From Cyanophora paradoxa CCMP329 (taxonomy: Eukaryota > Plantae > Glaucophyta): a DNA stretch of 64,000 nt. Under the pieces are notes generated by a model, which was not told the DNA's origin, did not search any database, and saw nothing but the letters and a program-made list of their open reading frames with translations. Within the stretch, counting starts at the first letter, position 1. Each line of letters starts with the position of its first letter. Where the stretch lies: NCBI GenBank assembly GCA_004431415.1, contig QPMI01000562.1, positions 1 through 64,000 of the forward strand. Direction: 5' to 3'. Shown in pieces: positions 3,330 to 34,032 of this stretch. Position numbers and translations under genes: made by a program.

Positions 3330-3332
3330 GAG

Positions 3333-5284: not shown

Positions 5285-5512
5285 TTTAACTGTTGACGAA
5301 AACCCAAGCATTATGACATCATATCATTAAACCCCATACAAAACACTAAAATGCATGTATCTCTTCACCAACTCATCGCCTGACAAAACCAAAAACAGAT
5401 TCGGAATCCTCTTGACAAGACCTGCGTGACGATGTAAGTATCATAGGCTCAATAAATCATATGTTTAAAGGCATCTCCCCTTGATTCCCCCTATTATATT
5501 ATATTTATATTT

Positions 5513-6638: not shown

Positions 6639-6644
6639 GAGACT
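6639..6644 (+). repeat. Left target-site duplication GAGACT
   Basis: Identical to 34,027-34,032, and both copies abut the TIR ends. Confidence 0.95.
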
Positions 6645-9671: not shown

Positions 9672-12600
9672 TTAATTAAAAGGAACAGAATTAATACCAT
9701 CTGGTAAGATGTATCTCTTTGCATCAAAGCAGTTTAGGGCAACCCTTCTACTCACAGTATCTATTATTGTGTGATCTGCCCTTCTTTTCTGCTTTGCAGT
9801 CACAGTCTTGCTGATACCTGCAAATAAACACTCCTTAAAATCATTGAATTGGAGTTCCTCAGTGGAAGTCCCAGATAGCTTACTTCTCTCAATCTCAGCA
9901 GTTCTGAAACTGTAAACTTTGGCTCTCAGACCTACATACTCCAATATAGCAGAACCTGGCATCTCATTTTTGTATTTACCTGGGGTCATTCTGTTAGATC
10001 CCCCTAAGTCCAGATTAAAGGATATATTCTCTAGGTCTTTTTGGAGGGTCTGAGATTCGATATATAGACAAAAGGAATCAGTATCATGGAATAGTAACTT
10101 TGCTTTTGCCCACTGGGACCTTACAGTATCATAGAAGAACTTGTAGTTATGCAGTTTGGCAGTATCCAAAACATAAGCCCCAATAGCAACAGGTTTATCT
10201 AGCTTCACATGCTTTGTGTAAAACTCAAAGGCAACTGCTTTTTCGTTTATGGGACTTGTTGATTTCACCAATGGGGAAGCTGCATATTTCATAAACAGTT
10301 TCTCACTGTTTGCAATCTTAACCACAGATCTACCTCTGCAAGATTCAATGCATTTCCCATAGATTGAGTTATTCATGAGTTTATAGAAATCAGCCTCGAA
10401 TTTATTCACTGCTTTCCTTCTCATCTCAGTATTCAGCTCAATGTAGGGTTTCATTACAGGAGCCACAGTAAATGATAGGACCCTGTGAACCTTCTTTAGT
10501 TTCACCCCTTTGTCCAACAGATACTGTAGAAGAGGCTCAGAAATCACATAGTTTGTCACAGAACCAAAGGTTGCAGTTAGCTTAGGGGTCTTATCAAGCT
10601 CTTCTCCTGAGAGATCTAATAGGCTCTTTTGATATTGTGATAATTCTGCATATTCTACTATTTTCTTGTTAATAATTAGGGGGAAATCACTGTGGTCTAG
10701 ATATAGCCTAATTGGGTAATCCAGATCAACTTCCAGGAAACTGGATCTGTTATCTTGTGGGTTGAATTCGGTCTCCCATCTAAAATCACCAACTGGGATT
10801 GGCTGACTCAAACAGTAGCCATACAAGTTGTTAGCATCAAACAGCATTATATGGGAGTTCTCACCATCAGCCTCAGCATACCTACAAGGCATTGTTGCAA
10901 AGCCACCCCTGATTCCCCTCTCAACAAATTCGTATTGCTCTACATCACTTATTAGCTCTATTTTTGCCTTGGTGGTCCTTAACATAGCATCCCAAGATAA
11001 CCCAGGGGCAGATACATAATGAACTGGGTCAAGTCCATATACTGAGTGTGAAAGCCTTCTAAAAGCCTGGAATTTGTTCATTAACTCATCTACATCAGCA
11101 GCTCCAAAATCCATGAAGTTACTTGCATCAATGAACTTGTAAAGACCCCATTGCAATGAAAGGTATTGATCAAAGTTTTTCGAAAGGATTTCGATTCGCT
11201 TTTTATCACCCATGCCTGCTATTTTTCTGAAAATGAATGTCCCACAGTCATCCATTTGGTCAACAACTACTGCAACTTTGGTTTGCTTTGAGATTCTCCT
11301 ATGGAGATTGCAGTTTCTGCATGCAGGAGCAATATAATGACCTGTGTGGTGATCATGATCCCTGCATTTGAAGTTCTCCTTAGTGAACCTCTCACTGCAA
11401 AGGTAACAGTGTTTGGTAGCTCTGTAAATTGCTTTCTGCTCATCTGTGAGTTCATTCATAGGAATGTTGGTAAACAGGAAATCGATTAGTTCTCTTGCTT
11501 TGGACTCCAAGCATTCAAAGAGACCTCCCATTGGATCCTGACCCTCAAATCGAAACTCCTGAACATCTGCCCCAGTGACTACTCTCAGGTTGACTGCTGA
11601 GACTTCCCTCTTAGATTTTGATGCATCAATGGGGATGCTTCTATGTTCAATCTTGCAGTAAACCACAACAGGAAGCCAAACAGTTTTCCTGAGGTTTTTC
11701 AGTCCAAACTCTATGGTGGTCTCAGGTTTTGGTGTGATTCCCTTTGAGAGTCTCCAATCAATGCATCTATTTGAGTCCACATGAGCAGTGAGTTTAGCCT
11801 CAGACCTGAATCGAGATAAGCATGTATCACAGTAGTGTAACTTTTGATCCTTGGTTTTATCAAGGGCAACTCTGAGAAGTCTTGAAAGGGACATGATTGT
11901 AATATAGTGACCATTCCCTTCATCATCATGAATGAGCATTAGATTAATCTTTTGCTTTCTACCTGGGTTACTGGATTGATGTAGGGGATATATAACATCT
12001 CGATCCATTCCAAATATGTTTATGCTGATGCCTGCATTTTGAGATTCGAATTTATCAATTATTTCAGCATCACAGGCAACAGGGAATGGGATGTTATCGA
12101 AATTGAGTGCCAGAGGATTGTATGTAGTTGGTGAGTATTTCCATTTGCGATATTGTGTAAGCTCACTTCTCTTGTGGGAATTCACATCTTTCCTATGGAT
12201 CCATGCCAAAATGGCATTTTCGAAGCAAGAATCATCAATATTTCGAATATTCACTGTGGCTCTCTTGGCTGCAATTGACTCAGGTGTTTTAACATAGCAA
12301 CCACCGGTTGGGGCATAACTCATAATAGCAACTCTAAGCATTTCGATTCTCTCCAATCGATAGCTATCAACAACATTCATCTGTTCCTGACACATTTGGG
12401 CTGCTTTATTCAGCTCAGTTCGAATATTTCTCGATTTGGTTAATACAAAATAATCGCTGTAAATGTATTTCGATATCCAAACCTGTGGATTGCTGACTTT
12501 TACGAACTTGCAGATAAACGATAAGCGAACTTTGATTGCCCTGAATTGATCTAGACTGTCTCTTAAACGTTTTGGTAGAGAGGTTGCAATTCTATCTAAA

Positions 12601-12917
12601 TATTCAATCACATCAACAACAACTTCCCTTCTGGCTCTGTAAGTGAGCCAGCGATATAATTCATTCATTGCTGTACCATCTTCTGCCTCTGGTTCTATTT
12701 GCCTCAGGCGATCGAGTTCATCAAGAGTTTCAACTTTATCATAGAGGTTATTGGCTTTTCTGGTTAATTTCGCTAAAGTGGGTCTGCCCCTTGAAATAAA
12801 TCTGATTTCCCGGTCATATTCAGCCTCTGTAATTTCATGGGCTGCATACAGTGTTCCCAGTAATCCCATGAGTTCCCATTTCTTCTCTCTAATGAGTCTG
12901 TTGCTAATTCGGGGCAT
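9672..12917 (-). CDS. Protein-primed family B DNA polymerase (terminal-protein/vOTU-like N-terminus, endonuclease VII-like Zn finger, degenerate exonuclease)
   Basis: NIDDSCF...GHY, CYLC...RDHDHHTG...CRNCN, YGLDPVHY, GIRGG, DANNLYG, KLMNNSIYGK, HDTDS, LRAKVY. Confidence 0.93.
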   Translation of the reverse strand: MPRISNRLIREKKWELMGLLGTLYAAHEITEAEYDREIRFISRGRPTLAKLTRKANNLYDKVETLDELDRLRQIEPEAEDGTAMNELYRWLTYRARREVVVDVIEYLDRIATSLPKRLRDSLDQFRAIKVRLSFICKFVKVSNPQVWISKYIYSDYFVLTKSRNIRTELNKAAQMCQEQMNVVDSYRLERIEMLRVAIMSYAPTGGCYVKTPESIAAKRATVNIRNIDDSCFENAILAWIHRKDVNSHKRSELTQYRKWKYSPTTYNPLALNFDNIPFPVACDAEIIDKFESQNAGISINIFGMDRDVIYPLHQSSNPGRKQKINLMLIHDDEGNGHYITIMSLSRLLRVALDKTKDQKLHYCDTCLSRFRSEAKLTAHVDSNRCIDWRLSKGITPKPETTIEFGLKNLRKTVWLPVVVYCKIEHRSIPIDASKSKREVSAVNLRVVTGADVQEFRFEGQDPMGGLFECLESKARELIDFLFTNIPMNELTDEQKAIYRATKHCYLCSERFTKENFKCRDHDHHTGHYIAPACRNCNLHRRISKQTKVAVVVDQMDDCGTFIFRKIAGMGDKKRIEILSKNFDQYLSLQWGLYKFIDASNFMDFGAADVDELMNKFQAFRRLSHSVYGLDPVHYVSAPGLSWDAMLRTTKAKIELISDVEQYEFVERGIRGGFATMPCRYAEADGENSHIMLFDANNLYGYCLSQPIPVGDFRWETEFNPQDNRSSFLEVDLDYPIRLYLDHSDFPLIINKKIVEYAELSQYQKSLLDLSGEELDKTPKLTATFGSVTNYVISEPLLQYLLDKGVKLKKVHRVLSFTVAPVMKPYIELNTEMRRKAVNKFEADFYKLMNNSIYGKCIESCRGRSVVKIANSEKLFMKYAASPLVKSTSPINEKAVAFEFYTKHVKLDKPVAIGAYVLDTAKLHNYKFFYDTVRSQWAKAKLLFHDTDSFCLYIESQTLQKDLENISFNLDLGGSNRMTPGKYKNEMPGSAILEYVGLRAKVYSFRTAEIERSKLSGTSTEELQFNDFKECLFAGISKTVTAKQKRRADHTIIDTVSRRVALNCFDAKRYILPDGINSVPFN

Positions 12918-14370: not shown

Positions 14371-16698
14371 ATGAACGCCAAACAGACTAAATCGCTCAAA
14401 TCGCTCGCTAACTGGCTCAGATCTGATGAGGATCTAGCCAAAAACATGATTATCCCAGTGAAACCTGACAGCAAAGACCCTGTTTTCAAGCATAAGGGAG
14501 GTGCTTGGTCCTGGGAAAAGTATGAAGAAGCGCTGGCAACTAATCAGTATGTATCTTGGGGCATTCTGCTCTCAGACAACATGATGGTTATTGACTTTGA
14601 TGATGAGGAGAACTTTGAGAAATTCCGAGATATGTTTCCTGATGACTTTGATGCCAATCAACCCATGGCAAAAACTAAAAAAGGCTATCATGTCTACTTT
14701 AAACGTCCTGAGGAGTTCACTAAACTCAAAATCACCGATAAGGCTCCAGGCTTTAAAGGCTTTGAAAAGGTTGACCTGAAAACAATCACTGGAACTGGAA
14801 CTTCTGGATTAATTAATGTTTGTCCCAGTGTCAACAAGACCTGGGTAATTGCTCCATGGGATGATACCTGTGATTTCAATGAGCCTACTGATGAGTTTAA
14901 AAAGTGGATTGCAGAGAACTATATCTATAAGAGTGAGTATACTGCTAATGCTACCTCACATGATGCATTGGAAAAGAGTATTCTTAAAGAGCTGGTGGAT
15001 ATGGGCTTTATGCATCCCAATATAATCTCTCAAACTGAACTGGGCTTTAACTTTGATGCTGCTAATAAGGGACTTAATTGCCCATGCTGCAATGGGTCCC
15101 ATGAATCGAATAACTGGTATGTTATGAAAGCCAAAGGAGAAGATAAAAAGTATATTGTGTCCAGCTACAGTGGCAATTGCAAAAAACGATTTATCTTCAT
15201 TGGAATGCAATCTGATATCTTCAATCTCATTGATAAGTCCGCTGGTTCTGGAGGCGCTCATTATGATGTCAGTCTTGTGTGCAAAGAGGTACTACAACAT
15301 ACTTGGAGATACTCCAAAAAGTCATGGTTCAAACTCAATACTGATACTGGGATTTGGGAGCATGATGACACAAACCAAAAGATTTACCTAGACATAAGTT
15401 GCCTTGTTGTCCCTCAATACCTTGGCAGGGCTGTGCATTATAGCCAAAGAGCTTTGAAGGATGAAGAGAATAGAACAGCTTTCGAAGAGAAATCGAAAAC
15501 ATTAATTTCTATTGCCAAAAATCTTAAACAATCAGGATATCGCAAATCCCTTCTGACTGATCTGCTCCCTCTGCTGAATGATGATGAATTCTATGAAAAG
15601 ATTGATACAGTTCCATATGTAATTGGATTCGATAATGGTGTATTTGATCTGACAACTATGACTTTCAGAAAGGGGAAACTGGAAGATATGGTGAGCAAGA
15701 GTGTGGGTTATGATTATACTGAGAATGTAGACCCCAAGAAAGTAGACCATCTCAATCAGATTTATAGAGAGATTGTAGATGATCCAGCAGAGCGAAACTA
15801 CCTTCTGGCATCTATTGCAATTGCCCTCAGTGGATCAACAAAATCACAGAAGTTCTACATGTGGACTGGTGCTGGGGCAAATGGTAAATCACTTGTTCAG
15901 GAATACTGCAAACAGATTTCAGGGGCTTATTATAGCCCTCTCGAAATATCCTATTGGACCAAACCTAAAAAGAACTCATCAGATGCTACTCCTGAACTTG
16001 CCAAACTCCTTGGAAAGCGACTTGTATTCAGTAATGAGGCTGAAGATGGTGATAAACTGCAGATCTCCAAAATTAAGGAGGTCACAGGTGGAAATGAAAT
16101 GACTGTGAGAGCCTTGTTCAAAGACCCAGTAATCCTCACTCCAATGTTCCAGGTTTACATTACAACTAATGACAATTTGACTATAAATAAACCAGACTTT
16201 GCAATTCAAAGAAGACTTTCATACCAGAGATTCAATAATATATTCAGAGAGAAGCCTGAAGCTGGTCAGAAGAAAGCTGACCCAACACTGTTCACACTTC
16301 TACACAATGATGATGAGTATAAGATGGCTCACATGAAGATATTACTGGATATGTGGAAGAACAAAGAGGTTGAAGAGATCTTAAGAAATCCCCCTCAATC
16401 GATTATTGAACAGGGAATAAACTTTATAGCTGAAAATGATAAGATTGGTGAATGGCTTAGGGATAATTTCGAAGTTACCCATAATGCAAACGACTTTGTT
16501 TCGAGTGATATCATTTACAAATCATACAGAAGTGTCGATGATAAAGTTGAATGTGTTTCTGTGATGAAGAGAGTAAGGGAAATCTTCAATGTGAAATCAG
16601 AGGTTAAACGAATTCAGGGAACCAGAGCAAGGGGCTACATTGGACTTCGAAAGATAACAAGGGTTCAAGAAGACAATGGAGAGGATGTTGAATATTAA
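14371..16698 (+). CDS. Prim-Pol primase fused to D5-like SF3 helicase
   Basis: VIDFDD and KTKKGYHVYF (AEP/Prim-Pol motifs), CPCC..H..C Zn motif, IGFDNGVFDL, Walker A GAGANGKS, Walker B LVFSNE, IKEVTGG. Confidence 0.93.
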   Translation: MNAKQTKSLKSLANWLRSDEDLAKNMIIPVKPDSKDPVFKHKGGAWSWEKYEEALATNQYVSWGILLSDNMMVIDFDDEENFEKFRDMFPDDFDANQPMAKTKKGYHVYFKRPEEFTKLKITDKAPGFKGFEKVDLKTITGTGTSGLINVCPSVNKTWVIAPWDDTCDFNEPTDEFKKWIAENYIYKSEYTANATSHDALEKSILKELVDMGFMHPNIISQTELGFNFDAANKGLNCPCCNGSHESNNWYVMKAKGEDKKYIVSSYSGNCKKRFIFIGMQSDIFNLIDKSAGSGGAHYDVSLVCKEVLQHTWRYSKKSWFKLNTDTGIWEHDDTNQKIYLDISCLVVPQYLGRAVHYSQRALKDEENRTAFEEKSKTLISIAKNLKQSGYRKSLLTDLLPLLNDDEFYEKIDTVPYVIGFDNGVFDLTTMTFRKGKLEDMVSKSVGYDYTENVDPKKVDHLNQIYREIVDDPAERNYLLASIAIALSGSTKSQKFYMWTGAGANGKSLVQEYCKQISGAYYSPLEISYWTKPKKNSSDATPELAKLLGKRLVFSNEAEDGDKLQISKIKEVTGGNEMTVRALFKDPVILTPMFQVYITTNDNLTINKPDFAIQRRLSYQRFNNIFREKPEAGQKKADPTLFTLLHNDDEYKMAHMKILLDMWKNKEVEEILRNPPQSIIEQGINFIAENDKIGEWLRDNFEVTHNANDFVSSDIIYKSYRSVDDKVECVSVMKRVREIFNVKSEVKRIQGTRARGYIGLRKITRVQEDNGEDVEY

Positions 16699-18522: not shown

Positions 18523-19305
18523 TTATAAACCGCGTTTATATCGCATCAATTTATTGCTATGGACTTGGCTTTTCACTTCTTTTGGGGCTTCCTCTTTCTC
18601 TGGTGGTTTCAGTTCATCTTCTTTCTTTTTGGGCTTCCTGTGGAAGCGAGGGAATGGGAAATCTTTCACAAGGTCCGCTTTATCAACAAAGTATTTAACT
18701 GAGTAGCCAGCAGAGGACCAAACGATATACTGATAGGAGTGAACATACTCTTCAAACATCTTGTAGAAATCCTCTTTATTTCGCATTATATTGTATTCTT
18801 CCTCTATGGCTTCAAGTTCTTTGCGATTAGCAGCACTTAGGAAAACAGCATAATCAGAATTAACTCGAATAGTGGAAGAGACTTTTCTGAGTTTCTGTGT
18901 AATGCAGATAATGGATATTTTCGAATGGCGACCTCTGGAATACAAGGATCCGATTATTTTATCCCTTGTGAGATCGACTATCTCATTATCAATTAAATCA
19001 TCTAAAACAACACACATGTGGTTCACAGGTTCACCTTTTTCGATTTTCTCCTGCCTTTCATCCAAAAGCTTTGAAATGTAACCAGCATCCCATTTACCAA
19101 GTTCTACTGTTGCAACCTCTCTCCAGAAATGATTAAAGCTGGTCCCACTCACAACTAGGACAACATCAATAACTTTGGCATCATGTAATTGCTTTAACCA
19201 ATACTTTACACATTCGCTTTTTCCCGTACAACTTTTGCCTATAAAAATGGCTCTGAAAACACCTTTTATCATTTCAGAAACATTAAACTCTTCTAAATCT
19301 TGCAT
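18523..19305 (-). CDS. A32-like DNA packaging ATPase
   Basis: Walker A GKSCTGKS, Walker B VVLDD, RGRHSKISIICITQ, TIRVNSDY. Confidence 0.93.
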   Translation of the reverse strand: MQDLEEFNVSEMIKGVFRAIFIGKSCTGKSECVKYWLKQLHDAKVIDVVLVVSGTSFNHFWREVATVELGKWDAGYISKLLDERQEKIEKGEPVNHMCVVLDDLIDNEIVDLTRDKIIGSLYSRGRHSKISIICITQKLRKVSSTIRVNSDYAVFLSAANRKELEAIEEEYNIMRNKEDFYKMFEEYVHSYQYIVWSSAGYSVKYFVDKADLVKDFPFPRFHRKPKKKEDELKPPEKEEAPKEVKSQVHSNKLMRYKRGL

Positions 19306-19364: not shown

Positions 19365-20730
19365 CTATAAATTGATTCTACGAACACCTGAACCGTCTAT
19401 AATGAGGAAACTATGCATTAAAGCGCGAACTTGAACATTGATTGTCTTATCTGTGGGCATGTAGAGTGTGAGGAATGAAGATGAGGAATTTGTCAGGTCA
19501 ACAAATCCACTTTGAGCAATATTTCGAATCGCCTTCTCTCCATCAATGCAGAAACTTAAACCTGAAAGGACATATTTATCTGCAACCTTATCCATGTTAG
19601 AGCATTTGAATGCATCAGCAATTAGCTCAGCACCTTTGAGTAGGGAAATTGGCTCAGTGGCATAAAGTCGTTGTCCATTAATTTCAACAGTGAAAGTAAT
19701 ATCTTTGGAGTTGGCATAGGTCTTAAGAACACTGTGGGAGCCATTGGATTTGTCAACAGTCTCATAATCACGAACTGAAACAAGCAGAGCATAGACAAGA
19801 CCTGAGATTTGAGAGAGGTTAATTCGATTGGGCTGGGCATTGCCCTTGGCAGGGAAAGCAATGGCATCTACAAATCCAATATCAAGGGAGGGAATAGCCA
19901 TGCCAGTAGTCTTTACTTTTTCAATTACAGTAGCGAAAAGCTCATCAGAAACATTAATAGCATGCATGTAAAGGCGAGGAGAAGTAATTGAAATAGCAGG
20001 GGTTGTTGCACCAAGACTGAAAGTGGTGATGTTTTGACCAACATGGGCAAGTGTAGCATTAGCAGTATCACCAAGACCATCATCTTCTGTCTTATCAGCA
20101 GCTGTCCCACCAACAACAGGGAGAGAGCGACCACCATAGGAAGTTTCAACATAACCCTTTCCAGCATCCTTAAACCAAACAGTAACAACCATTTCACCAG
20201 ATAAAGCACCAAGGGAAGATAGTGATTTAGCCAAGGCACTGGGATTTCAACGAAAAATGAGCCACCAAGTCGGTTGGTTCCATGAGCAGGGATTCCATGA
20301 ACCATGCCCATTGAGCGTTTCTTTTTAGCTAGTTGATCCTCCGAATAATAGACCAGGGGAAATGAGCAAGGAAATCAGAAGGAATGTGGTAGGTGTAAGA
20401 TCCATAGGTAATTTCAAGTCGCTGAACTAAAGCACCAACTGGGCGAGTGTATCCATTGCGAACTAGATCTTCACCAGCAAAAGTGATTTCTGGTAGGTCG
20501 AAAGCAAGTTCGAGTTTTCCACAGAAATTGTAGCGAGGTAGCTTGAAGGAAATGCGATTTCCAACATTATTCTCAAAAGTATTGCTGGGATTCACAACAA
20601 CTAGAACTGGCTTAGACTTGGATTCGAGTCCAAGCATAAGGGAGTTATCCAGGAAAAAGGCTTTCGCCTCCTCTGGGGTTGTTAGGGCTTCTTTCAGCGA
20701 AAGTCTTTGAAGAGTGGAAGTGATATCCAT
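19365..20730 (-). CDS. Major capsid protein (double jelly-roll, ~455 aa), two 1-nt frameshifts in this sequence
   Basis: MDITSTLQ...ISFKLPRY..KLELAFDLP..YTRPVGALVQRLEITYG..FFVEIPVPW..FTVEING..SGFVDLTN. Size, beta-rich composition and position next to ATPase and mCP fit. Breaks at ~20,358 and ~20,231. Confidence 0.8.
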
Positions 20731-22752: not shown

Positions 22753-24294
22753 AGGCACCTGTAAAGTCCACTCTCATTGTGGGAGCATTCACATACACAA
22801 GGGATAAATGCGAATATACTTGATTCTGAGAGAAAAACCTATGTAAAAAGCATCCTTGATGCTGAGAGGAAATCCACTCAATAAAGCAACATCACCTGAG
22901 TTGTGAGCATTGTTAATGTTCTCACAGACATATATTTTGTTCTGCCCATCTGATCGAATAAAAGACCAGTTGATCCCATCAGTGGATGTTGCCACATTGA
23001 AAGTCTTAATAAAAGCATTGGTGTCCCTGAACCATAGGCAATAACAGAGGAGAGTTCGAAAGTATATGGGAAAGCAACTTGAAGGTATTCAGTGGGGGTT
23101 TCCCATATCTGCTCAGGAGCATAGGCTCCAGCTTCCCAGCCAAATGCTGAAGGTCTAGCCATGAAAGGCTCTTTACCTGTCACAGAGGATGAGGCAGTGA
23201 AGGCATCATCTGCAAGCTGATACCAATTTGCATCCAAAGGAGGTGATGTAGTGAGAGTGGATGATATGTAAGCCTTTGAAGGGTTCTTTAATTCATAGTT
23301 TGCTACTAGAATGCTGCAAAGCTTATTAATCATATCATTGTTTGCTGCAATGTATGTTTCAGTGAATGCAAGCATGTCTGGGATTTTAGAAGTGTCATCC
23401 AGGGAGCTTACTATATGATTTGGAAGTGGGACTGATAGCCTATAGTATCTCCCATAATCCTGATCATAGTTGTAGGGTAACAACTCCTCCATCTTATCAA
23501 GGGCAGAAAGCTCACTTGCAGCCATGAGCATGTTAATCAATGGGCTTCCATCTGTTGAGGCAATCCATGAGAGAATGCCCCAGCTGTTGACAGTCTCATA
23601 AGCATAACCCACATAATCAGACTCTAAATGTGGGTCCACCTCTCCACAAGATATACTTATTACTATAATATCATCATCATCACTGTAAATTTTCTTTGCA
23701 TGGCTGTAACCACACACACTGGGATTATTGTTTCCAGAAATGGCACCATCAATGAGACAGACATATACTCCCCGATTGAAATCAACAATGCTTACAGGTG
23801 AAAAGTATGTAGGAGCAGCAGAAGTAGCCCTAGCAGCAATCTTACAGGGCATAAAGTTGTAATTGTTGTCATTTGTGATAAATATTGGTTTCATATTCTG
23901 AGTATCAAAGGATGTGATCACAATGTCCTTTAGGGAATCCTGTATTAGTGATTCACCAGTAACTGAATTGATTGCAGTCTCCAAGGGTCCCACATCATAC
24001 TTTGTATTAAAAAGGGCATTTTCGATTATATTTCGAGGATTTGCGAAAATCAAGGGCAGTTGAGTTAGGTAAATATTGTGTAAATCGTTTGCTGTCAGTT
24101 TAGGTTCACCTGGTTTATCAGGATGCCTTATATTCAAACCTATTGCAATGATCCCACCAGTGGAAGTTCCACTCACAAGATCCACAAGATCGATTATTCT
24201 CCTGCCAGTTCGATTTTCGATTTCTTTTAGCAGCCTGGTTATGATAATGCCCTTGCACCCCGCCAGAAAGACTTAAAACGACCTTGAGAGGCAT
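22742..24294 (-). CDS. Patatin-like phospholipase fused to a discoidin (F5/8C) domain, three 1-nt frameshifts
   Basis: VLSLSGGG(C)KG, GTSTGG, ARATSAAPTYF, LIDGAI..NNP; then FTASS..W..EYLQVAF..FNVATSTDGINW..YIRIYP..MRVDF. Confidence 0.85.
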
Positions 24295-24337: not shown

Positions 24338-27300
24338 ATGAGCTTCAATTACCCACCAAATCTAGAAACCATTCAAGATGATAATGCAAGCAGCACCAAG
24401 CATGTGAACTTTGATAATATTAAAGTAAAGGGTTCAGTTTCAATTGACCACAGCTCTGATAATTCATCAAAGACTCAATCAAGGGAGCATGCTTTATCTG
24501 TGAATCAAACCGATCCAGATAAAGAGGATGTCAGTGTAGCCTTTAGTTTGGGTAATGTGAAAGCAAACCAAGTGGCAGAGATCAAAGCAACAAGAAGGAG
24601 ACCTAGGAAACTAAAAACCAGTGGCACTCACCCAGATATACCTTCCAGGTTTGATAGTGGTCGATTGATTTTCAATGTTCAAGATGAGCAGGGCAAACAG
24701 AACACAGCTTTGCGAATTTACAATGAGGGCAGCACTGCAAAAGCTGAGGTCCCCCAAGTATTGCAAGTGGGTCCCATTGCCAATACAAATCAGGTCTCCT
24801 ACACAAATGATGTCTACCCCAAGGATATTACATATGACTTTGCAAGAAATGAGCCTTTTGGTTTCTTTACTCCAAAAGATGTCCATCAAAAAAAGCCATC
24901 AATTACAATCAACAGTAGCCCCAGTCAACCAGTAGCAATCCATTTACATCCTGATTTAGTCGAAATGGATAGGCACCTTTTGCCTTTGTATAGCAATGTG
25001 AAAGACCTTGGAATTAGAACCAGGCAATGGCGAAATATCCATGGCAGCAATGTGTATGCAAATGGGGAGAAACTTGTGAGTGAGAAAACTCTAAGGGAAA
25101 TAATTGAGCATTATGGTCCCAATGGACCAACAGTCCCATTCCCTATTCCATTTCCAAATGGACCTCCCGATTTAACACCAAAGAAACAGCCTGGAAGAGA
25201 ATACACAGCAACTGAAGATGTAGCCTTTGGGCAGCATATTGTTAGTTGGGAGCAAGTTCGCAATAAACCTATAATTGAACCCAGAAAGCAAATAGATGAG
25301 CAGTATTTACCTCCTGAAGTCGATATATTAGAGCTTGATGAATATCAATTCGTTCCAGATGAGGAAGAATATTTACCAGATGGTTTTGACCCACAAGAAT
25401 ATGAATATGATCAGTTTGACCCCAATGAGGAGGAGATACTACCAGATGGCTTAGATCCCCAAGAGTTTGAGTATGAGCAGAACTATGAACCTGATGAGGA
25501 GTATTTGCCAGATGGGCATGATCCACCAGCTGTTGACTATGAGCAACCTTATGAACCCCATGAGGAACTATTACCAGATGGATTTCGACCTGAGATCTGG
25601 GAGTTCTTTCCTGATTATGAACAAATTAATAATAAACCTGCAAAGTATCCCCCAGAGGATCACAATCATGACTGGGATGAGATCTTAGGCAAACCACAGA
25701 AATACCCACCAGAAGACCACAGGCATGATTGGGGTGATATTGATGGGATTCCAGATAAGTTTGCAGCAAGCAACCATGAACACACTTGGGATGAGATTAA
25801 TGACCAACCAGAGTTTGCAAAAGTGGAGCCTCTTGCTACTCTGGGAGTTTCTCTTTACCAGACTTGCAATGTCCCTGAAAGGATCTTTTTGAATGAACAC
25901 TATGTACATGTGAATGGGACACTTGCGAATTCAGCTATGAGAGGACCACTTCATATTAGGACATTACCAGGCTCTTATAATCCACCACCTGAACCAGGAG
26001 CAACCATACCAAATATCTTTGTGTCAAGCTACATGGAGGCTGACATTCCCACAGATACATTCAGAGTCCCAACAGACCCAGCAACCTACCAAAATTACAA
26101 CTCTGCTATACAGGTTCATGTAGCAGATGTAAGCAGTCTAGATGGATCAAGACCAATGATAGTTTTCAGTCGAGATAAATATTCCTATATTCCCATAGTG
26201 GGAACTGCAAATGATAACTATGGAAGGGCAGAGCTTGCATGGATTAAAACAAACTATGGTGGGGTTCTGGAAGCCAATCAGAGGATGGCAGCAAAAAACA
26301 TACACAATGAAAATATTTCGAGAGTGGTCACAGAGGATTATCTAGAAGATCAAGGATATATTGATGAAGGTGAACTCACAAATATTCTTTCTCTTTTTGT
26401 GATCAAAAATGACACAAACCTTACAGTCACTTCCAATATCTACACCAGTAACCTTTATACAAGTAACATTTTCACAAGTAACCTATGGGCAAGTAACATT
26501 TGGACAAGAAAACTATGGGCAGATGATATTTACACAAGTAATCTTACAGTGTATCGAAATATAACAATTGGAACACAAAACACTATACAAATACTTTATA
26601 GACCTTACTACGCTGTTACAACTGTCATTGATCCAGCCCCAATTATTCCAAATTGTATATTTGCATGGAAAGCATCAGGTCAACATGGTCAGTTGATTTA
26701 TTACCAAGGTAAGATATATAACAGAGTTACTACACAGATACCATATCTAACAAATTATTCGAATTGGGAAACTGTTTATTATTATTTGAATGCAACCCTA
26801 AACAATCAAATTTCGATTGGGAAAGAATTAAACATGGCTTATAGGAATAGTGTTTCAATAGATTGGTCATTAGGTCTTACATTATTCTTTATAGGTAGGA
26901 TCAATACAACAAACCCTTCTTATATGTTGAGTATAAGGGATAGTTCTTATCAAAATTGGATTGGATATGGTTGTAAAAATCAAAAGTTTGGTGTTTCACT
27001 ACAAATTCAAAACGATATAGAAAATGCAACTCCTCCATTATTCGATGCATCATATATTTATAATTCGTGGAATTATTGGGATTTCACTGTTTCCTCAGAG
27101 CAAATTGTCGTAGGAATGGGTGGTATTGATATTGGAACATCATCGGGTGATTTTCTTCCACCTTCTAATTTTGCATCATTTGGTTCTTCTGTTGCTAATG
27201 GAGATCTTGCCGAAATTATCGTTTTCAATCGTGCGTTATCTATTGAAGAAAAGAACGCGGTTAGATATTATATACAATTATTGTATGGATTTCCAAATAC

Positions 27301-30166
27301 GCAGCCCATATTGAATAATGAAGATCTTAAAATTAATTCGAGCAATATATTTATTGAAAATCTCACAGTTACCAAAAATGCAACTCTACCACATCATCCA
27401 ACATCGAATGTTGTTTTAGATTGGTTAGCAAAACAAAAACACACAAAAGCAGATATTACGGATTTCGCCCATACTCACACAAAATCGCAAATCACAGATT
27501 TTGACCATACTCACACAAAATCGCAAATCACAGATTTTGACCATACTCACACAAAATCGCAAATCACAGATTTCGCCCATACTCATTTATGGGAGCATAT
27601 CACAAATCCTCCGTTAACCTTCCCACCTGATTCACACACTCATGATTATTCAGAGATTACAAATAGCAACCACAGGCACCCATGGAGCGAAATAGACGAA
27701 CAGCCAGTTTTTGCCCAATTGAATGCAATCGGAAACGTTTTTAATGGAGTCACACTTTACCAATCGAGTAATACACCTGAAAGATTGTATTTGAATGATC
27801 ATTATGTTAGTCTCAATGGTTCATTTACAGGTGAAACAGGCACACCGATGGTGGGAACTCTTGCAGTAAGATTACCCAGGGATCCAATCGTAAATGGAGT
27901 GTATAGTGGCGATTTTAATGTAGGAGTAAATGATACTTTCCCCAGTATCTATGTAACGAATTATCACCCGGGTGAAACAGGACAAGTAGCGGATTTTTCA
28001 GCAGCTATTCAAATTAACGTAACAGATCAAAGCGCATATGATGGAGCAAGACCTAAAATAGTATTCACAAGGGAGAAAGTCGTTAACTATCTTCCTGTTG
28101 TGGGACAACCCACAGACGATCATGGGAAATGTGAGATGGCGTGGATAAAAACGACATCAGGTGGCGCCTTAGAAGTCAATCAGAGAATGGCGGCGAAAAA
28201 CTTACACAATACAACCCTTTCCGGTGTTGTTACAGATGATTACCTTACCAATAAAGGGTATCTTACCTCAGCCGATTTAAGTAGTTACACAACAGATGCA
28301 GAATTAACGGCGGCACTTGCTAATTATCTACCTCTCACAGGTGGAACTGTAACAGGAACTGTGAATGCTACCACTTTACAAATTGGCGGAACCACAATAC
28401 CAAAAGGTTACGATTTCGACCAATTAGATGTGGTTTCATCAGATAGAAGCGCAAATAATTGGAATTTAGGGTGGACACCAAGAACAGGACAAACAGGATG
28501 TTATACAACACCACAAAATGATGAAGATTGTAGCGGTTGTTTTATGAGGTGGACTGTCCCCACAGGTATGAAATCATTTTATATTCAGCATATGCCTTGG
28601 TATAATGGCAGATATTTTGATATCTATGGTCAGACTCTCAATAACAATCAGCATTTCTTAAAACGTGTAAACGATTATCAAGGAATACAGTCAGTAAATC
28701 ATGATGGGACAAATAGTACTATCTTGTTTGTATCAATTAATTGCGAGTTTTACAAGTATATTTATGTTCAAGGTCGAAAAGGTCGCATTCATCTCACAGG
28801 AGTTTTTGGTTGGAGTAGGCAGAGGGCAACAGATAATGATGTTGGTATGATCTCTTGGGATAATATATTTAGCAAACCGTCATTTTACTCAGCCGCAGAC
28901 CTTCCACAAACCGCAACATGGGCAACAAATACATGGTTAAAATCAGTAGATGCAGTCGAGCGAATTTGGTTTGGTACTGGCGATTGCACATATATACGAG
29001 GGAGACCAAATGGTGATGCTGTGTCAATTGAATTCAGAAACTCAGCAGATACAGCCATTTTAAAATCTTATAACAATGGTAACTTTTGGGTGAATAACAC
29101 TATTACAGCACCTACTATTAATGCAACCACCAAACTCCAAATAAACGGTAATGATGTCCCAAAGTTTCACACAGCAGATAAAACAGTAGGAGGTATTGCA
29201 TTTAATAGATGTTCTGAGGGTTGGACATGGGCATGGAGTTCAGCATGGGATCCATATTATAATTATGGTTCATATGTTTATAATAATCAAACGGATGATC
29301 AAACATCTACCGCTTGGATTGACTTCGATATACCCGATGGATACCACACAGGAACAGCATTTTTAACCTATTTACCTTGGACTAACTCACGACTTTTTGA
29401 AATTTGGGGAGTAAATCGACAAGGAAATGAAGTTTTTATTACATCAGTGAATAGTTATCAACCATACGCCACATCTCCTGACAGTAACCACAGTGGTATA
29501 AATAATGTTCCAATACATCTTGGTAATCGATTCCTCACTATTCGGATTAGACCAAAGATAGGAAGAGTTCATATTATGGGTATAAGTTATATGAAAATTT
29601 GGGTAGGAAATAGTTATGGTGGTCACACCGGTTATATTCATTGGAATAATGTTTATAGTAAACCAAATATCTTAACAGGGGCATTGGATCTTTGGTTTAA
29701 CTCTAATGATGGATATAATCGTATCTATTTTACGAATAATAGCACCACGTATTTTAAAGGAAGAGGAACTTATCCAATAAGATTTCGAAATGAATTAGAT
29801 TCTGATATTTGTTGGATCGATCATGACGGGCGGATGTGGATAAACAATTATTTAACACAAGGAAGTGACAGAAGATACAAAACAGATATTAAAAAGATAA
29901 CCGGCGCTCTTTCAGCAATCGAAAAATTAGAAGGAGTGAGTTTTAAACGAATTGGGAGTGAAAAAGACGGAACAAAATTAGGTTTAATTGCGCAAGATGT
30001 AGAAAAGGTAATACCAGAAATTGTAAGTGTCACAAAAGAAGATGGTTACCTTTCTCTCGAATACACGGGTTTAATTCCAGTTCTCATTGAAGCTGTGAAG
30101 GAGTTGTCCCAAAAATGCAAAGATCTACAGGATCAAATAGACCAAATTAAAAATGTCAAAGTATAA
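24338..30166 (+). CDS. Giant modular fibre/spike protein with C-terminal peptidase S74-like intramolecular chaperone
   Basis: HxH fibre repeats (WDEILGKPQKYPPEDHRH; HTHTKSQITDF), TSNL pentapeptides, LamG-like GDLAEIIVFNRALS, SDRRYKTDI...GLIAQDVEKVIPEIV...LIPVLIEAVKEL. Confidence 0.88.
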   Translation: MSFNYPPNLETIQDDNASSTKHVNFDNIKVKGSVSIDHSSDNSSKTQSREHALSVNQTDPDKEDVSVAFSLGNVKANQVAEIKATRRRPRKLKTSGTHPDIPSRFDSGRLIFNVQDEQGKQNTALRIYNEGSTAKAEVPQVLQVGPIANTNQVSYTNDVYPKDITYDFARNEPFGFFTPKDVHQKKPSITINSSPSQPVAIHLHPDLVEMDRHLLPLYSNVKDLGIRTRQWRNIHGSNVYANGEKLVSEKTLREIIEHYGPNGPTVPFPIPFPNGPPDLTPKKQPGREYTATEDVAFGQHIVSWEQVRNKPIIEPRKQIDEQYLPPEVDILELDEYQFVPDEEEYLPDGFDPQEYEYDQFDPNEEEILPDGLDPQEFEYEQNYEPDEEYLPDGHDPPAVDYEQPYEPHEELLPDGFRPEIWEFFPDYEQINNKPAKYPPEDHNHDWDEILGKPQKYPPEDHRHDWGDIDGIPDKFAASNHEHTWDEINDQPEFAKVEPLATLGVSLYQTCNVPERIFLNEHYVHVNGTLANSAMRGPLHIRTLPGSYNPPPEPGATIPNIFVSSYMEADIPTDTFRVPTDPATYQNYNSAIQVHVADVSSLDGSRPMIVFSRDKYSYIPIVGTANDNYGRAELAWIKTNYGGVLEANQRMAAKNIHNENISRVVTEDYLEDQGYIDEGELTNILSLFVIKNDTNLTVTSNIYTSNLYTSNIFTSNLWASNIWTRKLWADDIYTSNLTVYRNITIGTQNTIQILYRPYYAVTTVIDPAPIIPNCIFAWKASGQHGQLIYYQGKIYNRVTTQIPYLTNYSNWETVYYYLNATLNNQISIGKELNMAYRNSVSIDWSLGLTLFFIGRINTTNPSYMLSIRDSSYQNWIGYGCKNQKFGVSLQIQNDIENATPPLFDASYIYNSWNYWDFTVSSEQIVVGMGGIDIGTSSGDFLPPSNFASFGSSVANGDLAEIIVFNRALSIEEKNAVRYYIQLLYGFPNTQPILNNEDLKINSSNIFIENLTVTKNATLPHHPTSNVVLDWLAKQKHTKADITDFAHTHTKSQITDFDHTHTKSQITDFDHTHTKSQITDFAHTHLWEHITNPPLTFPPDSHTHDYSEITNSNHRHPWSEIDEQPVFAQLNAIGNVFNGVTLYQSSNTPERLYLNDHYVSLNGSFTGETGTPMVGTLAVRLPRDPIVNGVYSGDFNVGVNDTFPSIYVTNYHPGETGQVADFSAAIQINVTDQSAYDGARPKIVFTREKVVNYLPVVGQPTDDHGKCEMAWIKTTSGGALEVNQRMAAKNLHNTTLSGVVTDDYLTNKGYLTSADLSSYTTDAELTAALANYLPLTGGTVTGTVNATTLQIGGTTIPKGYDFDQLDVVSSDRSANNWNLGWTPRTGQTGCYTTPQNDEDCSGCFMRWTVPTGMKSFYIQHMPWYNGRYFDIYGQTLNNNQHFLKRVNDYQGIQSVNHDGTNSTILFVSINCEFYKYIYVQGRKGRIHLTGVFGWSRQRATDNDVGMISWDNIFSKPSFYSAADLPQTATWATNTWLKSVDAVERIWFGTGDCTYIRGRPNGDAVSIEFRNSADTAILKSYNNGNFWVNNTITAPTINATTKLQINGNDVPKFHTADKTVGGIAFNRCSEGWTWAWSSAWDPYYNYGSYVYNNQTDDQTSTAWIDFDIPDGYHTGTAFLTYLPWTNSRLFEIWGVNRQGNEVFITSVNSYQPYATSPDSNHSGINNVPIHLGNRFLTIRIRPKIGRVHIMGISYMKIWVGNSYGGHTGYIHWNNVYSKPNILTGALDLWFNSNDGYNRIYFTNNSTTYFKGRGTYPIRFRNELDSDICWIDHDGRMWINNYLTQGSDRRYKTDIKKITGALSAIEKLEGVSFKRIGSEKDGTKLGLIAQDVEKVIPEIVSVTKEDGYLSLEYTGLIPVLIEAVKELSQKCKDLQDQIDQIKNVKV
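27469..27586 (+). repeat. 36-nt tandem repeat, about 3.3 copies (HTHTKSQITDFD)
   Basis: ccatactcacacaaaatcgcaaatcacagattttga units start at 27,469, 27,505 and 27,541. Confidence 0.95.
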
Positions 30167-30169
30167 TAA

Positions 30170-30475
30170 ATGGCGACCTATCCTCTTGGTGGAACCACCT
30201 ATTCTACTGAGCCTGTTGCGCTTTCTTTTGATACAATCACCCTTGTAAACGCATTACAAACAGTTGAAAAAACGATTCAGCAAACTAACAAGCTCTCACC
30301 AGTTGTCAATGAGTATAAAAACCTCTTGGTTAATGTCCTTGCTCAAGCTGCATATGGTGACCCTGTTGCTAAATACACTGAGTGTGATAACAACATTAAA
30401 GCAATGACATCCAACCTGCAAGTTCTTTCAACTGTTTACCAATCCCTTGGATCGAATTTAATCACTTTGGCTTGA
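30170..30475 (+). CDS. Hypothetical helical protein (101 aa)
   Basis: Starts 3 nt after the fibre stop codon; viral composition. Confidence 0.65.
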   Translation: MATYPLGGTTYSTEPVALSFDTITLVNALQTVEKTIQQTNKLSPVVNEYKNLLVNVLAQAAYGDPVAKYTECDNNIKAMTSNLQVLSTVYQSLGSNLITLA

Positions 30476-30514
30476 TTGCAGTTTATTTTTCTTTCCTTCT
30501 TAGTAAAAGAAGCA

Positions 30515-31369
30515 ATGGGTGAATATAATCGAGTTCAACTGCCTATATATTCCCTTGGATCCCCTGCAATGCATTTTCGCCAGCATGAAGTAAATGATGA
30601 GGTTCGTGGTTTAGAATCCACAGAGAGACCCAATTCCAATGGCAACTCCTTTGATAAAAATTCGATTATTCGAGTTAAAGAGCTGAGAGCTGATAAGAAT
30701 TCTGGTGTGGTTAAAACAACTCGACTTCTTGTCACAAATGCTAACTTTTTCCAGCCTACCAATGGAGGTCCTGATGCTTACAGTGTTGATCTGAAAGCCC
30801 TTGATTTCGATAAGAATTCTGCTGCTGTAACTGTGAGATCAGGAGGAGCATTTATTGGTGGTGGCTGCAGAGTTTCAGGTCAGCTATCTTCATCTGTTTC
30901 CTACAATGATGTCCCAGATACTCTCGAACAAAATGTGGAGAACCCACAACGAATTCGTTTCTACACACCTGTTGCACAGCAACCTTTTTTGCATTTCTAT
31001 GTTGCATCCTCTGTAACTCTTGAGAATTCGGAATTAGTTTCCATTACAGGAACTGATCGAGTAAGAAGAAATATTCCTCTTCCCACTGCAATGCTTTCCA
31101 TGTGTAGAGCCAATAATAATCAACCAGGACACAACTACTTATTCTTTGTTCAAGCTTCGAACCATTTTGGCAGAGGATATTGTGTTTATAACAATTTGAC
31201 ATTTACCTATGATCTGTTTGTCACTGAGGTTGGAGTATACAATACTATGATTATGGGACTGAGAACAGATATAGCAGCTGTATCAGCACTTCGTGGGGTA
31301 AATGTTGCTGATATATTCACAACAGGATTTTACCAAGAATTAGATGTAATTGATGACCCAACCCCATAA
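30515..31369 (+). CDS. Putative structural protein, paralogue 1
   Basis: Shares ELRxDKNxGxVKTTxLLVTNANF and SGGAxIGxGxRVxG with the next gene. Confidence 0.75.
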   Translation: MGEYNRVQLPIYSLGSPAMHFRQHEVNDEVRGLESTERPNSNGNSFDKNSIIRVKELRADKNSGVVKTTRLLVTNANFFQPTNGGPDAYSVDLKALDFDKNSAAVTVRSGGAFIGGGCRVSGQLSSSVSYNDVPDTLEQNVENPQRIRFYTPVAQQPFLHFYVASSVTLENSELVSITGTDRVRRNIPLPTAMLSMCRANNNQPGHNYLFFVQASNHFGRGYCVYNNLTFTYDLFVTEVGVYNTMIMGLRTDIAAVSALRGVNVADIFTTGFYQELDVIDDPTP

Positions 31370-31392
31370 AAGATATATCCCTTTAATGTAAA

Positions 31393-32226
31393 ATGGCTGA
31401 GCAACCCCCACTTGAACGAATTCTTACACCTCTGCTGTCATTAGCTGCCCCAGCAAACCATGTTTTACAGCACGCTACCTTTGATGATGTAGAGGGTCTC
31501 CAATCAACAGAGGTCCAACCTACAATGAACACCTTTGGTTCCACCCACAAGCTGAGATTGCAGGAACTCAGATGTGATAAAAATAATGGAATAGTTAAAA
31601 CAACTAAGCTACTTGTCACAAATGCAAACTTTTCTGCTCATTATGGAGACCCAGATAGTTATGGAGATCCTCTTTCTACTTATTCTTTTGAATCTAGGTC
31701 GGGAGCTATTAACTGCAAATCGGGGGGAGCTTATATTGGTGATGGTCTTAGGGTTGGTGGGGCTGTTGGAGCGCCTTTATTTGTGAATGATCAACCCAAT
31801 CCCATTGATCCCAACACAAGAATTCGAACCTATGTCCCCAGCATGAATGCCCCCTATATAATAAAAATATTCCCAATTGTTGTGAATGAACAAACAGCAG
31901 TAGTAGACTCTCTTGTTGAAATTGGTGACCACTACAAGGTAGTTGTGGATATCCCACCAGATGTTTATGCTCTTTGTCAAGTAGAGGGTGGAACTCCTAA
32001 TTTTGCTGTTGTGATCACCCCATATGATAATTTTGGTATTGCTTATCATGGAGTCAATTTCGGTTTGGAAGATTATCAGTTCCTGGTTAGAGCCACCAAG
32101 TTTGGTATCTACAAGTGTGTATTATATGCTGAGAGAACCGATTTTATTGCAAGGCAGAATACCTATGCTGAATACTATGGCACAAATCGATATTTCCCCA
32201 TTTTCGGGCAGGATACTGCTCCATAA
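31393..32226 (+). CDS. Putative structural protein, paralogue 2
   Basis: Same motifs as the preceding gene. Confidence 0.75.
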   Translation: MAEQPPLERILTPLLSLAAPANHVLQHATFDDVEGLQSTEVQPTMNTFGSTHKLRLQELRCDKNNGIVKTTKLLVTNANFSAHYGDPDSYGDPLSTYSFESRSGAINCKSGGAYIGDGLRVGGAVGAPLFVNDQPNPIDPNTRIRTYVPSMNAPYIIKIFPIVVNEQTAVVDSLVEIGDHYKVVVDIPPDVYALCQVEGGTPNFAVVITPYDNFGIAYHGVNFGLEDYQFLVRATKFGIYKCVLYAERTDFIARQNTYAEYYGTNRYFPIFGQDTAP

Positions 32227-32248
32227 GAATATTGGGTATATATAGAGT

Positions 32249-32521
32249 ATGGATAGTAAAACAAAAAAGTTTATTGATGCTGCTATGACAGTCCATGGTA
32301 AAGATAAATTCGATTACAGTGAGACACATTACATCAAAGCTCAAGAGAAAGTATCTGTGAGATGTTTGCAGTGTAATAAAGTGATCCTTACCTATCCCTT
32401 TAATCATGTGAAGGGATCAGGGTGTAGGGACTGTAACAAAAGAAAGAGTCAAGCACACAGGAAAAGAGCTACTTCATCAATCAGAGTAGAGTATAGGGAT
32501 ATTTGCATTAGGTTCGATTAG
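32249..32521 (+). CDS. Stand-alone DUF723-like Zn-ribbon protein (homing-endonuclease-associated DNA-binding repeat)
   Basis: FIDAAMTVHGKDKFDYS..Y....KVSVRC..C.....P.NH.KGSGCRDC. Confidence 0.75.
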   Translation: MDSKTKKFIDAAMTVHGKDKFDYSETHYIKAQEKVSVRCLQCNKVILTYPFNHVKGSGCRDCNKRKSQAHRKRATSSIRVEYRDICIRFD

Positions 32522-32550
32522 GTTTAATTAATTTTTCTAAGGTATTCTTA

Positions 32551-32949
32551 ATGGAGACTAAATACAGAGGCTTTCATGTTATGCTTGATTACAAAGCTAA
32601 ATCAGCTATTGCAACAGGACATGAGCATGTAAGCTTCCTAGGTAATTGGATTATGAGAACCCTAGAACAAGCAATATTAAGACAAGGCATTAGGATTGTT
32701 CATAAACACTGTGAGATATTTGATGGCAAAGTATCACCTCCTGGGTTTGCATTGGTTCTGCTATTAGATGAAAGCCATTGCACAGCTCATTGTTATTCCA
32801 ATGAAGGCATGTTAGCAATTGATATATTCAGTTGTGGTAAAGAAGCTCAGCATAAAACACAAGCAGTTGCAGATGAGATCGATAAAACAATGAATTTCCT
32901 CACATTTGAGAAGACTGAGAGACATAAACATGATAGATTCCCGTTTTGA
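32551..32949 (+). CDS. speD: Prokaryotic-type pyruvoyl-dependent S-adenosylmethionine decarboxylase proenzyme family
   Basis: GFHVMLD...PPGFALVLLLDESHCTAHCYSNEGMLAIDIFSCG; ESH autocleavage motif; 132 aa. Confidence 0.88.
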   Translation: METKYRGFHVMLDYKAKSAIATGHEHVSFLGNWIMRTLEQAILRQGIRIVHKHCEIFDGKVSPPGFALVLLLDESHCTAHCYSNEGMLAIDIFSCGKEAQHKTQAVADEIDKTMNFLTFEKTERHKHDRFPF

Positions 32950-33146
32950 TGGGTTTCTATAATGATAATCAAGGTAATTTACCTTTTGTTTTACAATAGC
33001 AACTGTTACAAAAAGATATAATATATCCTTTTCCTACAGTAGCTTTCTACAATGTTTATTTTCCGGATTCCGGACATTTTTTACGATAGAATTCTATTGT
33101 AAGTAATTGGAATACTATTCGATTTCATTACAGTAAAACTCAACAT

Positions 33147-34026
33147 TCCCCTTGATTCCCCCTATTATATTATATTTATATTAAAGTGGACTCAAGGTTG
33201 ACTCATATTAATCGTAAAAGTAGTAATAGTATATGGATTTTGTTACGAATTCAATGCAAGGGTTGACTAAGTGGGTTGAGTTGACTCAAATTTCACAGGA
33301 AATAACAATGAATCAGAGTATAAATGCATTTTTTGAATCAACTACACCAACTAACACTGAGATTTTAACAATATATGAGGTCCTTACTGAATATGGTATG
33401 TGTCACAGGTGTCACAGGTCTATCCCAGCTCAAGCCCTATAAAGAGTGATTTTCCCTTTCGATGGGATGGACCTGTGACACCTGTGACACCCAATTATTC
33501 ATTAAATTCTTAAGGGACCCCCCTTAGACTCATTAAAACATGAGAAAAACATATCAATTTCATGTATAATTACGATTGAATTCAATAAGAGATCGATTTG
33601 TTTTATTAAACAAATGAATCTAATATGGATCTTAATCGAGTTAAGCGATATGTTTCCGATTAAATGAATTAAATTTAATTAAATTTAATCGAGAAAGTAC
33701 ATGAATATAATATCGATTAAATCAATTAACTTTTAGACCAATCACACATAGTAAAATGCGGAGTTTTAACCAGAGGCAAGATCTAATTGAGATTCAGTTA
33801 TATTATTCGGAATTTTATACAGATTATCGATAGAATCAGTAAGACTAATCGGAAAATAAGAGAAATTTACGATAAAATATCGAAAAGAATACAAAATAAT
33901 CGAAATAATTGAATATTCGATAAGATATACACAGATTATCGATTGATTGAAATAGAATATACGAGATATATGAACAAAATCAATTAAGATAAGCCGAGGG
34001 TTAAAACTCCGCATTTTACTATGTGT
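33147..34026 (-). repeat. Right TIR (880 bp)
   Basis: Reverse complement of 6,645-7,523. Confidence 0.95.
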
Positions 34027-34032
34027 GAGACT
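34027..34032 (+). repeat. Right target-site duplication GAGACT
   Basis: Identical to 6,639-6,644. Confidence 0.95.

Follow-up and report, generated by a model that had tools for sequence, protein, structure and literature searches.

The window analysed here is a stretch of 64,000 nucleotides of contig QPMI01000562.1 from the Cyanophora paradoxa CCMP329 assembly GCA_004431415.1, and it holds an inserted Polinton-like virus (PLV) of 27,382 bp at positions 6645-34026, within the 14-40 kb range of such insertions. The element is bounded by terminal inverted repeats (TIRs) of about 880 bp, the left one at 6645-7523 (about 880 bp, with two segments 100% complementary to the right TIR) and the right one at 33147-34026 (an inverted-repeat match to the left), and by the two copies of a 6-bp target-site duplication (TSD), GAGACT, at 6639-6644 and 34027-34032. 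The GC content is about 0.39 in the PLV versus 0.6-0.8 in the host flank. The outer 285 bp of each TIR contains a 49-nt inverted repeat of its own (82%; 33742-33790 and 33980-34028), a possible terminal stem.

The Pfam scan covered 21 ORFs of the PLV and found an integrase, a replication gene and a packaging ATPase, as expected of such an element. From left to right the gene set comprises an rve-type integrase (8283-9668, minus strand; a weak match, E=2.5e-4, below the cut-off), a protein-primed family B DNA polymerase (pPolB; 9672-12917, minus strand; PF03175, E=1.6e-13), a Prim-Pol/D5-type primase-helicase (14371-16698, plus strand; Pfam), an A32-like packaging ATPase (18523-19305, minus strand; PF04665, E=8.9e-12), a patatin-like phospholipase (22878-24185, minus strand; PF01734, E=6.7e-13) and a fibre protein of 1942 aa with a C-terminal Peptidase_S74 chaperone (24338-30166, plus strand; PF13884, E=1.3e-15). 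No double-jelly-roll capsid protein was matched by Pfam among the 21 ORFs. A probable double-jelly-roll major capsid gene lies at 19365-20730 on the minus strand, in more than one reading frame in the assembly; its feature match in the Atlas is 0.97 to Capsid_NCLDV-type clusters, with a low recognition score. A single-sequence fold of the capsid fragment was discarded at a pLDDT of 30. The split of this gene over several frames reflects either decay or long-read error. Two adjoining unannotated ORFs (30476-31369 and 31393-32226) have an N-terminal segment in common and look paralogous, and they are followed at 32249-32521 by a 90-aa ORF with two CxxC pairs that resembles a zinc finger. Outside the element, at 58-5633, the left end of the PLV recurs as a second copy in inverted, head-to-head orientation to the main element, with a pPolB and an integrase that are 87-97% identical. 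Since AT-rich DNA adjoins both TSDs, the insertion target of the main element may have been the end of a related PLV.

The last ORF of the PLV, at 32551-32949 on the plus strand, encodes 132 aa and is a SpeD-fold pyruvoyl proenzyme, predicted to be an arginine decarboxylase of the SpeDA branch. It carries the motifs ESH (E74-S75-H76), HCTAHCYS and IDIFSCG. The Ser75 codon (32773-32775, plus strand) marks the predicted self-cleavage site and pyruvoyl precursor and aligns to S63 of the Thermotoga maritima enzyme; the codons of His80 (32788-32790, plus strand) and Cys95 (32833-32835, plus strand) align to H68 and C83. In T. maritima S63, H68 and C83 are needed for self-processing and catalysis, according to the available text of PMC10407285, and Ser75, His80 and Cys95 are each invariant in all 33 aligned relatives of the ORF. 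The ORF matches the Pfam domain AdoMet_dc (E=1.7e-11, 44.8 bits, above the 25-bit cut-off), and its top sequence matches in the PDB are the class 1b S-adenosylmethionine (SAM) decarboxylases (AdoMetDC) of T. maritima and Aquifex. An AlphaFold model built from a 33-row alignment reached a pLDDT of 93.3. A Foldseek search with it likewise returned the T. maritima and Aquifex class 1b enzymes as best (E=5e-8, TM 0.71), the top five (E 5e-8 to 2e-7) being the same structures as the sequence matches. With an AdoMet_dc domain, a class 1b fold and a length within about 110-140 aa, the ORF is real and intact and has the class 1b SpeD fold with its self-cleavage and catalytic residues; residue conservation suggests that the product cleaves itself and is active.

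An earlier note, made from the DNA letters, had described the gene as a prokaryotic-type pyruvoyl proenzyme with ESH and IDIFSCG motifs, next to the right TIR and with no spermidine synthase in the element. The ORF, Pfam, PDB and fold results bear out the first statement, and the second agrees with a gap of 198 bp between the stop and the TIR at 33147. The third holds as well: no spermidine synthase occurs among the 21 PLV ORFs by Pfam, nor in the whole window by tblastn with one SpeE domain. Neither is there a methyltransferase among the 21 PLV ORFs according to Pfam. The note's CpG avoidance is likewise real, with an observed/expected ratio of 0.37 in the PLV body versus 1.07 in the host flank. 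The depletion is element-wide (TpG/CpA 1.26 in the PLV) and includes the ORF, at 0.15, which argues that the gene is a long resident of the PLV. A test for CpG deamination compared the two neighbouring copies and counted two CpG transitions among 114 differences, a figure that says little with so few CpGs left.

The stretch 30000-33100 is matched in part in 20 of the 24 listed sequencing runs, 19 of one organism. Contigs of three other runs (four compared) contain copies of the ORF that are about 5% diverged and free of gaps, and a further, more diverged copy in those contigs is also in frame. None of the listed runs is recorded as RNA. Three small ones were guessed to be RNA; their contigs span 31205-33100 and barely 30000-31200, with contig depths that cannot rank genes. 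The ORF is covered more deeply in two of these three, a pattern that multi-copy DNA would also give.

Genes of this kind have been counted in PLVs before. Table S6 of PMC12220804, a 2025 paper, lists AdoMet_dc (PF02675) in 138 of 5817 PLVs (our own sum, about 2%). By host, these are 66 of 156 glaucophyte PLVs (42%), 17 of 57 from Cryptomonas pyrenoidifera (30%), 10 of 177 from C. borealis and 45 of 706 from Rhodomonas lacustris; the other 15 host groups, 17 reference PLVs and 40 virophages have none. The main text of the same paper contains none of the words 'decarboxylase', 'AdoMet' or 'polyamine'. AdoMet_dc is also not mentioned in the available text and supplements of Bellas et al. 2023 (PMC10120064) or in the available text of a 2026 marine PLV survey (bioRxiv 10.64898/2026.05.28.728513). 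A full-text literature search returned nothing that pairs Polinton-like viruses with S-adenosylmethionine decarboxylase, found Polinton together with polyamine only in an unrelated context, and gave no mention of AdoMet_dc or PF02675 among the papers listed. The earlier note had treated its reading as void if the gene were already common in described PLVs: common it is in the glaucophyte counts, and tabulated, but the paper that tabulates it leaves it out of its main text. The gene's context in PLVs is thus already tallied in print, and its function has never been interpreted.

These counts bear on whether the ORF is a largely or wholly inactive passenger in a provirus family that is decaying. 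The split capsid gene of this PLV copy would suit such a state. The ORF and its catalytic triad are nevertheless intact, the diverged copies in other runs stay in frame, the domain recurs at the glaucophyte and C. pyrenoidifera frequencies given above (PMC12220804), and the gene has resided in the element long enough to be CpG-depleted like the rest of it. We consider an inert passenger very unlikely.

The proteins closest to the ORF are P0001-P0003 (52-61% identity), and the closest relatives with genomic context lie on the metagenome contigs L002-L004 (49-52% identity). L002 encodes an NCLDV capsid, Erv1, an mRNA triphosphatase and RNase III; given this NCLDV gene set, and the same gene order in L003 and L004, the three are taken as giant viruses. 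Next in similarity are eukaryote-like proteins with lengths of 160-330 aa. P0248 and P0249, both full-length, carry an N-terminal PQ-loop domain according to Pfam, and L005:260-1318 encodes a PQ-loop/SpeD-type fusion that seems to be interrupted by a GT-AG intron near 648-709. Five more proteins match a profile made from that PQ-loop N-terminus, one of them, P0257, having helped to build it. There appears to be a eukaryotic gene family in which an N-terminal PQ-loop membrane domain is fused to a putative SpeDA-type decarboxylase domain; the available text of PMC10407285 does not mention such a fusion. Some PQ-loop proteins are described, in the literature available in part, as transporters of basic amino acids, the PQ-loop family being a broad one. 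The outer relatives belong to Poseidoniales/MG II archaea and to planctomycetes, including named Gimesia species.

Members of the branch in IMG/VR comprise nine loci, namely five giant-virus MAG contigs, three others and L001. The latter is a PLV-like contig of 16.4 kb with a D5 helicase, a tyrosine-recombinase-like gene, a methyltransferase and a fibre gene, and with no capsid seen within the 14.6 kb examined. At L001:4324-5309 its SpeD-fold gene immediately precedes a gene for a DNA adenine methyltransferase, and a deoxynucleoside kinase is found on the same contig. Searches of IMG/VR for kin of the PLV by its ATPase found none and by its capsid fragment a single marginal match, and the ORF's nearest sub-branch was not found there with a profile and two DNA patterns. 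Several members show variations of their own. In L069, L070, L071, L073 and L075, from giant-virus MAGs, the Glu before the cleavage Ser is replaced by Ala, Ser or Thr, and self-cleavage may differ; L075 (5 kb) resembles a PLV fragment more than a giant virus. P0273 and P0285 are SpeD-SpeY (DHS-like) fusions within the branch, and P0028 and P0119 have two tandem SpeDA-type domains per protein, with Lys in place of Glu before the Ser in both domains of P0028.

The phylogenetic conclusions are drawn from two careful trees of 44 and 53 rows, computed without duplicates and without the longest branches (phiYS40, pelagiphages, L048, P0119, L072-L076); a 98-row tree was a quick search with long-branch warnings, in which two pelagiphage proteins fall far from the ORF. 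In the 44-row maximum likelihood tree the ORF belongs to a group of eight rows with giant-virus genes (100/98), which joins the eukaryote-like group (95/95). Together with Gimesia and Poseidoniales these form a 33-row branch (100/98) apart from 11 canonical-type rows. The ORF sits on a long branch, and its identity is 36-45% with the Poseidoniales rows and about 30% with Gimesia. Membership in the SpeDA clade was judged through congeners of the assayed proteins, L045-L047 being named Gimesia and P0084 an MG II/III clone, and the ORF shares the 33-row branch with them; it does not group with the validated or speE-linked AdoMetDC rows. Constraining the ORF to the canonical SpeD set, which included S-PM2 and a SpeD-SpeE fusion, was rejected by the AU test (p-AU 0.005). 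The 53-row tree unites viral and eukaryote-like rows in one clade of 30 rows (100/99), and the AU test does not separate viral genes nested in the eukaryotic PQ-loop group from viral genes sister to it (p-AU 0.48). Grouping the ORF with L001 was rejected (p 0.003), which indicates that the two small viruses acquired their copies separately. We infer that the PLV gene, which giant viruses share, comes from a eukaryotic gene; the viral copies are without its PQ-loop membrane domain, and transfer may have gone in either direction.

This placement bears directly on the substrate. The available text of PMC10407285 describes a highly supported SpeDA clade with Gimesia maris, Poseidonales, MG II/III, Solirubrobacter, Nannochloropsis and Tribonema, in which all proteins were active on arginine and none on ornithine or lysine. 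The SpeDA enzymes are slow (kcat/Km 20-2200 per M per s), and their genes mostly cluster with speY (Li et al. 2023, PMC10407285, as far as available). SpeY is reported to use agmatine directly (available text of PMC13625781), so a decarboxylase gene beside speY should make agmatine. In our set a speY/DHS-like gene occurs at 29 of 37 prokaryotic branch loci versus 0 of 19 canonical-type loci, and speE at 0 of 37 versus 5 of 19, counts over loci that are not independent, several being of the same species, while some of the eight without speY have short flanks; an agmatinase-family gene is present at nine of the 37. The segment HCTAHCYS after the cleavage site, which the earlier note had found unusual, is indeed there and proved to be a signature common to the whole branch. 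As the prokaryotic members of this branch adjoin speY and its congeners act on arginine, SAM is probably not the substrate. The conversion of arginine to agmatine appears likely on grounds of branch membership, with congeners standing in for the six assayed SpeDA proteins.

Two further features bear on the assignment. The ORF lacks the proline of the HxWP motif and keeps a proline 11 residues before E74; a 'gamma' proline is said to mark true AdoMetDC in the available text of PMC10407285. The HxWP proline was dropped as a decisive mark, the alignment showing it to be absent also from the phage phiYS40 enzyme, a validated AdoMetDC according to the available text of PMC9992855. The TIGR03330 score of the ORF (44.8 bits) is under the cut-off of 75.65, and Gimesia and Poseidoniales proteins just pass it; because SpeDA-branch proteins straddle this cut-off, it was rejected as a test of substrate.

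A true SAM decarboxylase, either feeding a host spermidine synthase or draining SAM to blunt methylation silencing, is suggested by the Pfam, PDB and fold matches, all of which are AdoMetDC, and by two eukaryotic giant viruses that encode a validated class 1b AdoMetDC (available text of PMC9992855). The missing HxWP proline of the validated phiYS40 enzyme and the position of the L001 gene before a methyltransferase gene point the same way. Against it stand the tree position and the AU test, as well as the lack of speE beside the 37 prokaryotic relatives and at all 13 viral loci, where a host-encoded partner is possible; the TIGR03330 score is a weak further argument. The PLV ORFs scanned contain no methyltransferase, and carrying the gene does not entail CpG depletion, the ratio being 1.34-1.42 in L002-L004 and 1.06 in L001; five giant-virus MAG contigs with branch members range from 0.44 to 0.88. 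SAM as the substrate, the first choice of the earlier note, is therefore disfavoured, and the product is probably not a SAM decarboxylase; we regard this role as improbable. The note's link from SAM drainage to CpG avoidance finds no support either: it fails on the substrate, and also because the depletion does not follow the gene, L002-L004 holding the nearest relatives with context and yet being CpG-rich. Its mention of arginine or ornithine as alternatives to SAM was well placed, since the published congeners of the branch decarboxylate arginine.

Ornithine, the SpeDC substrate, would give putrescine directly, with no partner needed, and a stand-alone gene would suit such an enzyme, an argument made in the available text of PMC10407285. 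The same source reports that the substrate of the SpeD fold has switched at least three times, and the viral branch is long enough for another switch to a different substrate. SpeDC is, however, described there as a single separate clade, and all four of its marks around the cleavage site (Gln, Thr, Phe and Tyr; Q/T/F/Y) are absent from the ORF in a by-eye comparison with the domains of Fig. S5. An ornithine decarboxylase or an enzyme for another substrate is accordingly highly improbable, and arginine remains the preferred substrate.

For the role of the enzyme, we favour, with moderate confidence, an intact self-cleaving SpeD-fold arginine decarboxylase that would enlarge the host polyamine supply during virus replication. 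The proenzyme would cut itself at Glu74-Ser75 to give the pyruvoyl enzyme, which would decarboxylate L-arginine, and not SAM, to agmatine; host enzymes would then use the agmatine, enlarging the polyamine supply. Self-cleavage and decarboxylation would proceed as in known class 1b enzymes. The last and weakest step has a precedent in a pelagiphage that supplies a pyruvoyl arginine decarboxylase to a host with agmatine synthesis of its own (available text of PMC9992855), and the use by host enzymes is proposed because the PLV is without agmatinase, speY and speE. None of these three genes occurs at any of the 13 viral loci, this PLV included, within the flanks examined, which leaves the agmatine either to host enzymes or as the end point.

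Agmatine as the end product would mean that the enzyme drains arginine or upsets polyamines, for example against a co-infecting giant virus, or serves nitrogen or pH handling of the provirus. All 13 viral loci lacking a downstream polyamine gene would fit this, as would the fusion of the cellular relatives to a PQ-loop membrane domain and not to polyamine enzymes. Bacteria possess arginine systems that pair a decarboxylase with a transporter. PLVs have also been proposed as antiviral elements (available text of PMC12220804). However, the closest relatives with context sit in giant viruses (L002-L004), suggesting help and not harm, and a drain would have to work with enzymes as slow as the published SpeDA. 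We judge it unlikely, though it is the main rival, polyamine supply being the better-precedented use; the presence of the nearest relatives in giant viruses fits a pro-viral role.

PLVs are very small, and in the prevailing view they carry little beyond genes for structure, replication and entry; a metabolic enzyme that as many as 42% of the PLVs from a single algal group retain must be of benefit to them. The likely-arginine label shifts the assay target from decarboxylated SAM (dcSAM) to agmatine and removes the methylation story; the kinship with giant-virus genes offers a marker for exchange between PLVs and giant viruses, and the PQ-loop fusion suggests that microbial eukaryotes have an enzyme for handling arginine that is yet to be described. 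What appears to be new is the substrate call, the kinship with eukaryotic (PQ-loop fusion) and giant-virus genes and the second, separate capture by a PLV-like virus. A wider scenario, tentative and rather doubtful, starts from a eukaryotic arginine decarboxylase tethered to the membrane (a PQ-loop-SpeDA fusion) that was reduced to the catalytic domain and then spread among giant viruses and PLVs, with at least two captures of SpeDA-type genes by PLV-sized viruses; expressed from integrated PLVs, it would alter the arginine and polyamine metabolism of the host much as lysogenic conversion does. In that case the gene would give eukaryotic viruses their first pyruvoyl arginine decarboxylase.

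Compared with the SpeDA enzymes of Gimesia, Poseidonales, Nannochloropsis and Tribonema (PMC10407285, available text), the PLV protein has the same class 1b fold and Ser/His/Cys triad, groups in a branch with their congeners and lacks the SpeDC marks. It differs in being encoded by a small eukaryotic virus with no speY or speB neighbour, in its identity of 30-45% to the prokaryotic rows and in the PQ-loop domain of its nearest cellular relatives. Chlorovirus PBCV-1 is likewise a eukaryotic virus that makes agmatine from arginine, but, in the sources available in part, with a PLP-dependent enzyme of the ODC fold and downstream enzymes leading to homospermidine, whereas the PLV has one pyruvoyl enzyme and nothing downstream. 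With the class 1b enzymes of phages and giant viruses (PMC9992855, available text) it has in common the virus-borne proenzyme as an auxiliary polyamine gene. Among these, the SpeD homologues of pelagiphage HTVC201P and others have turned into arginine or ornithine decarboxylases (ADC/ODC) and are phage-borne, and the tested class 1b enzymes of Heterosigma akashiwo virus and Yellowstone Lake phycodnavirus 2 are true AdoMetDC; the word 'polinton' does not occur in the text and supplement of PMC9992855. The nearest counterparts are the AdoMet_dc genes of glaucophyte and cryptophyte PLVs (PMC12220804, Table S6), which have the same Pfam domain in endogenous PLVs and are given as counts, with no substrate, tree or discussion, the comparison here being by domain label and not by sequence. 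The glaucophyte PLVs of that table have almost no match to a standard PLV capsid, and they possess the A32 ATPase, pPolB, D5 helicase, rve integrase, S74 fibre and lipase, in both respects as in the PLV described here.
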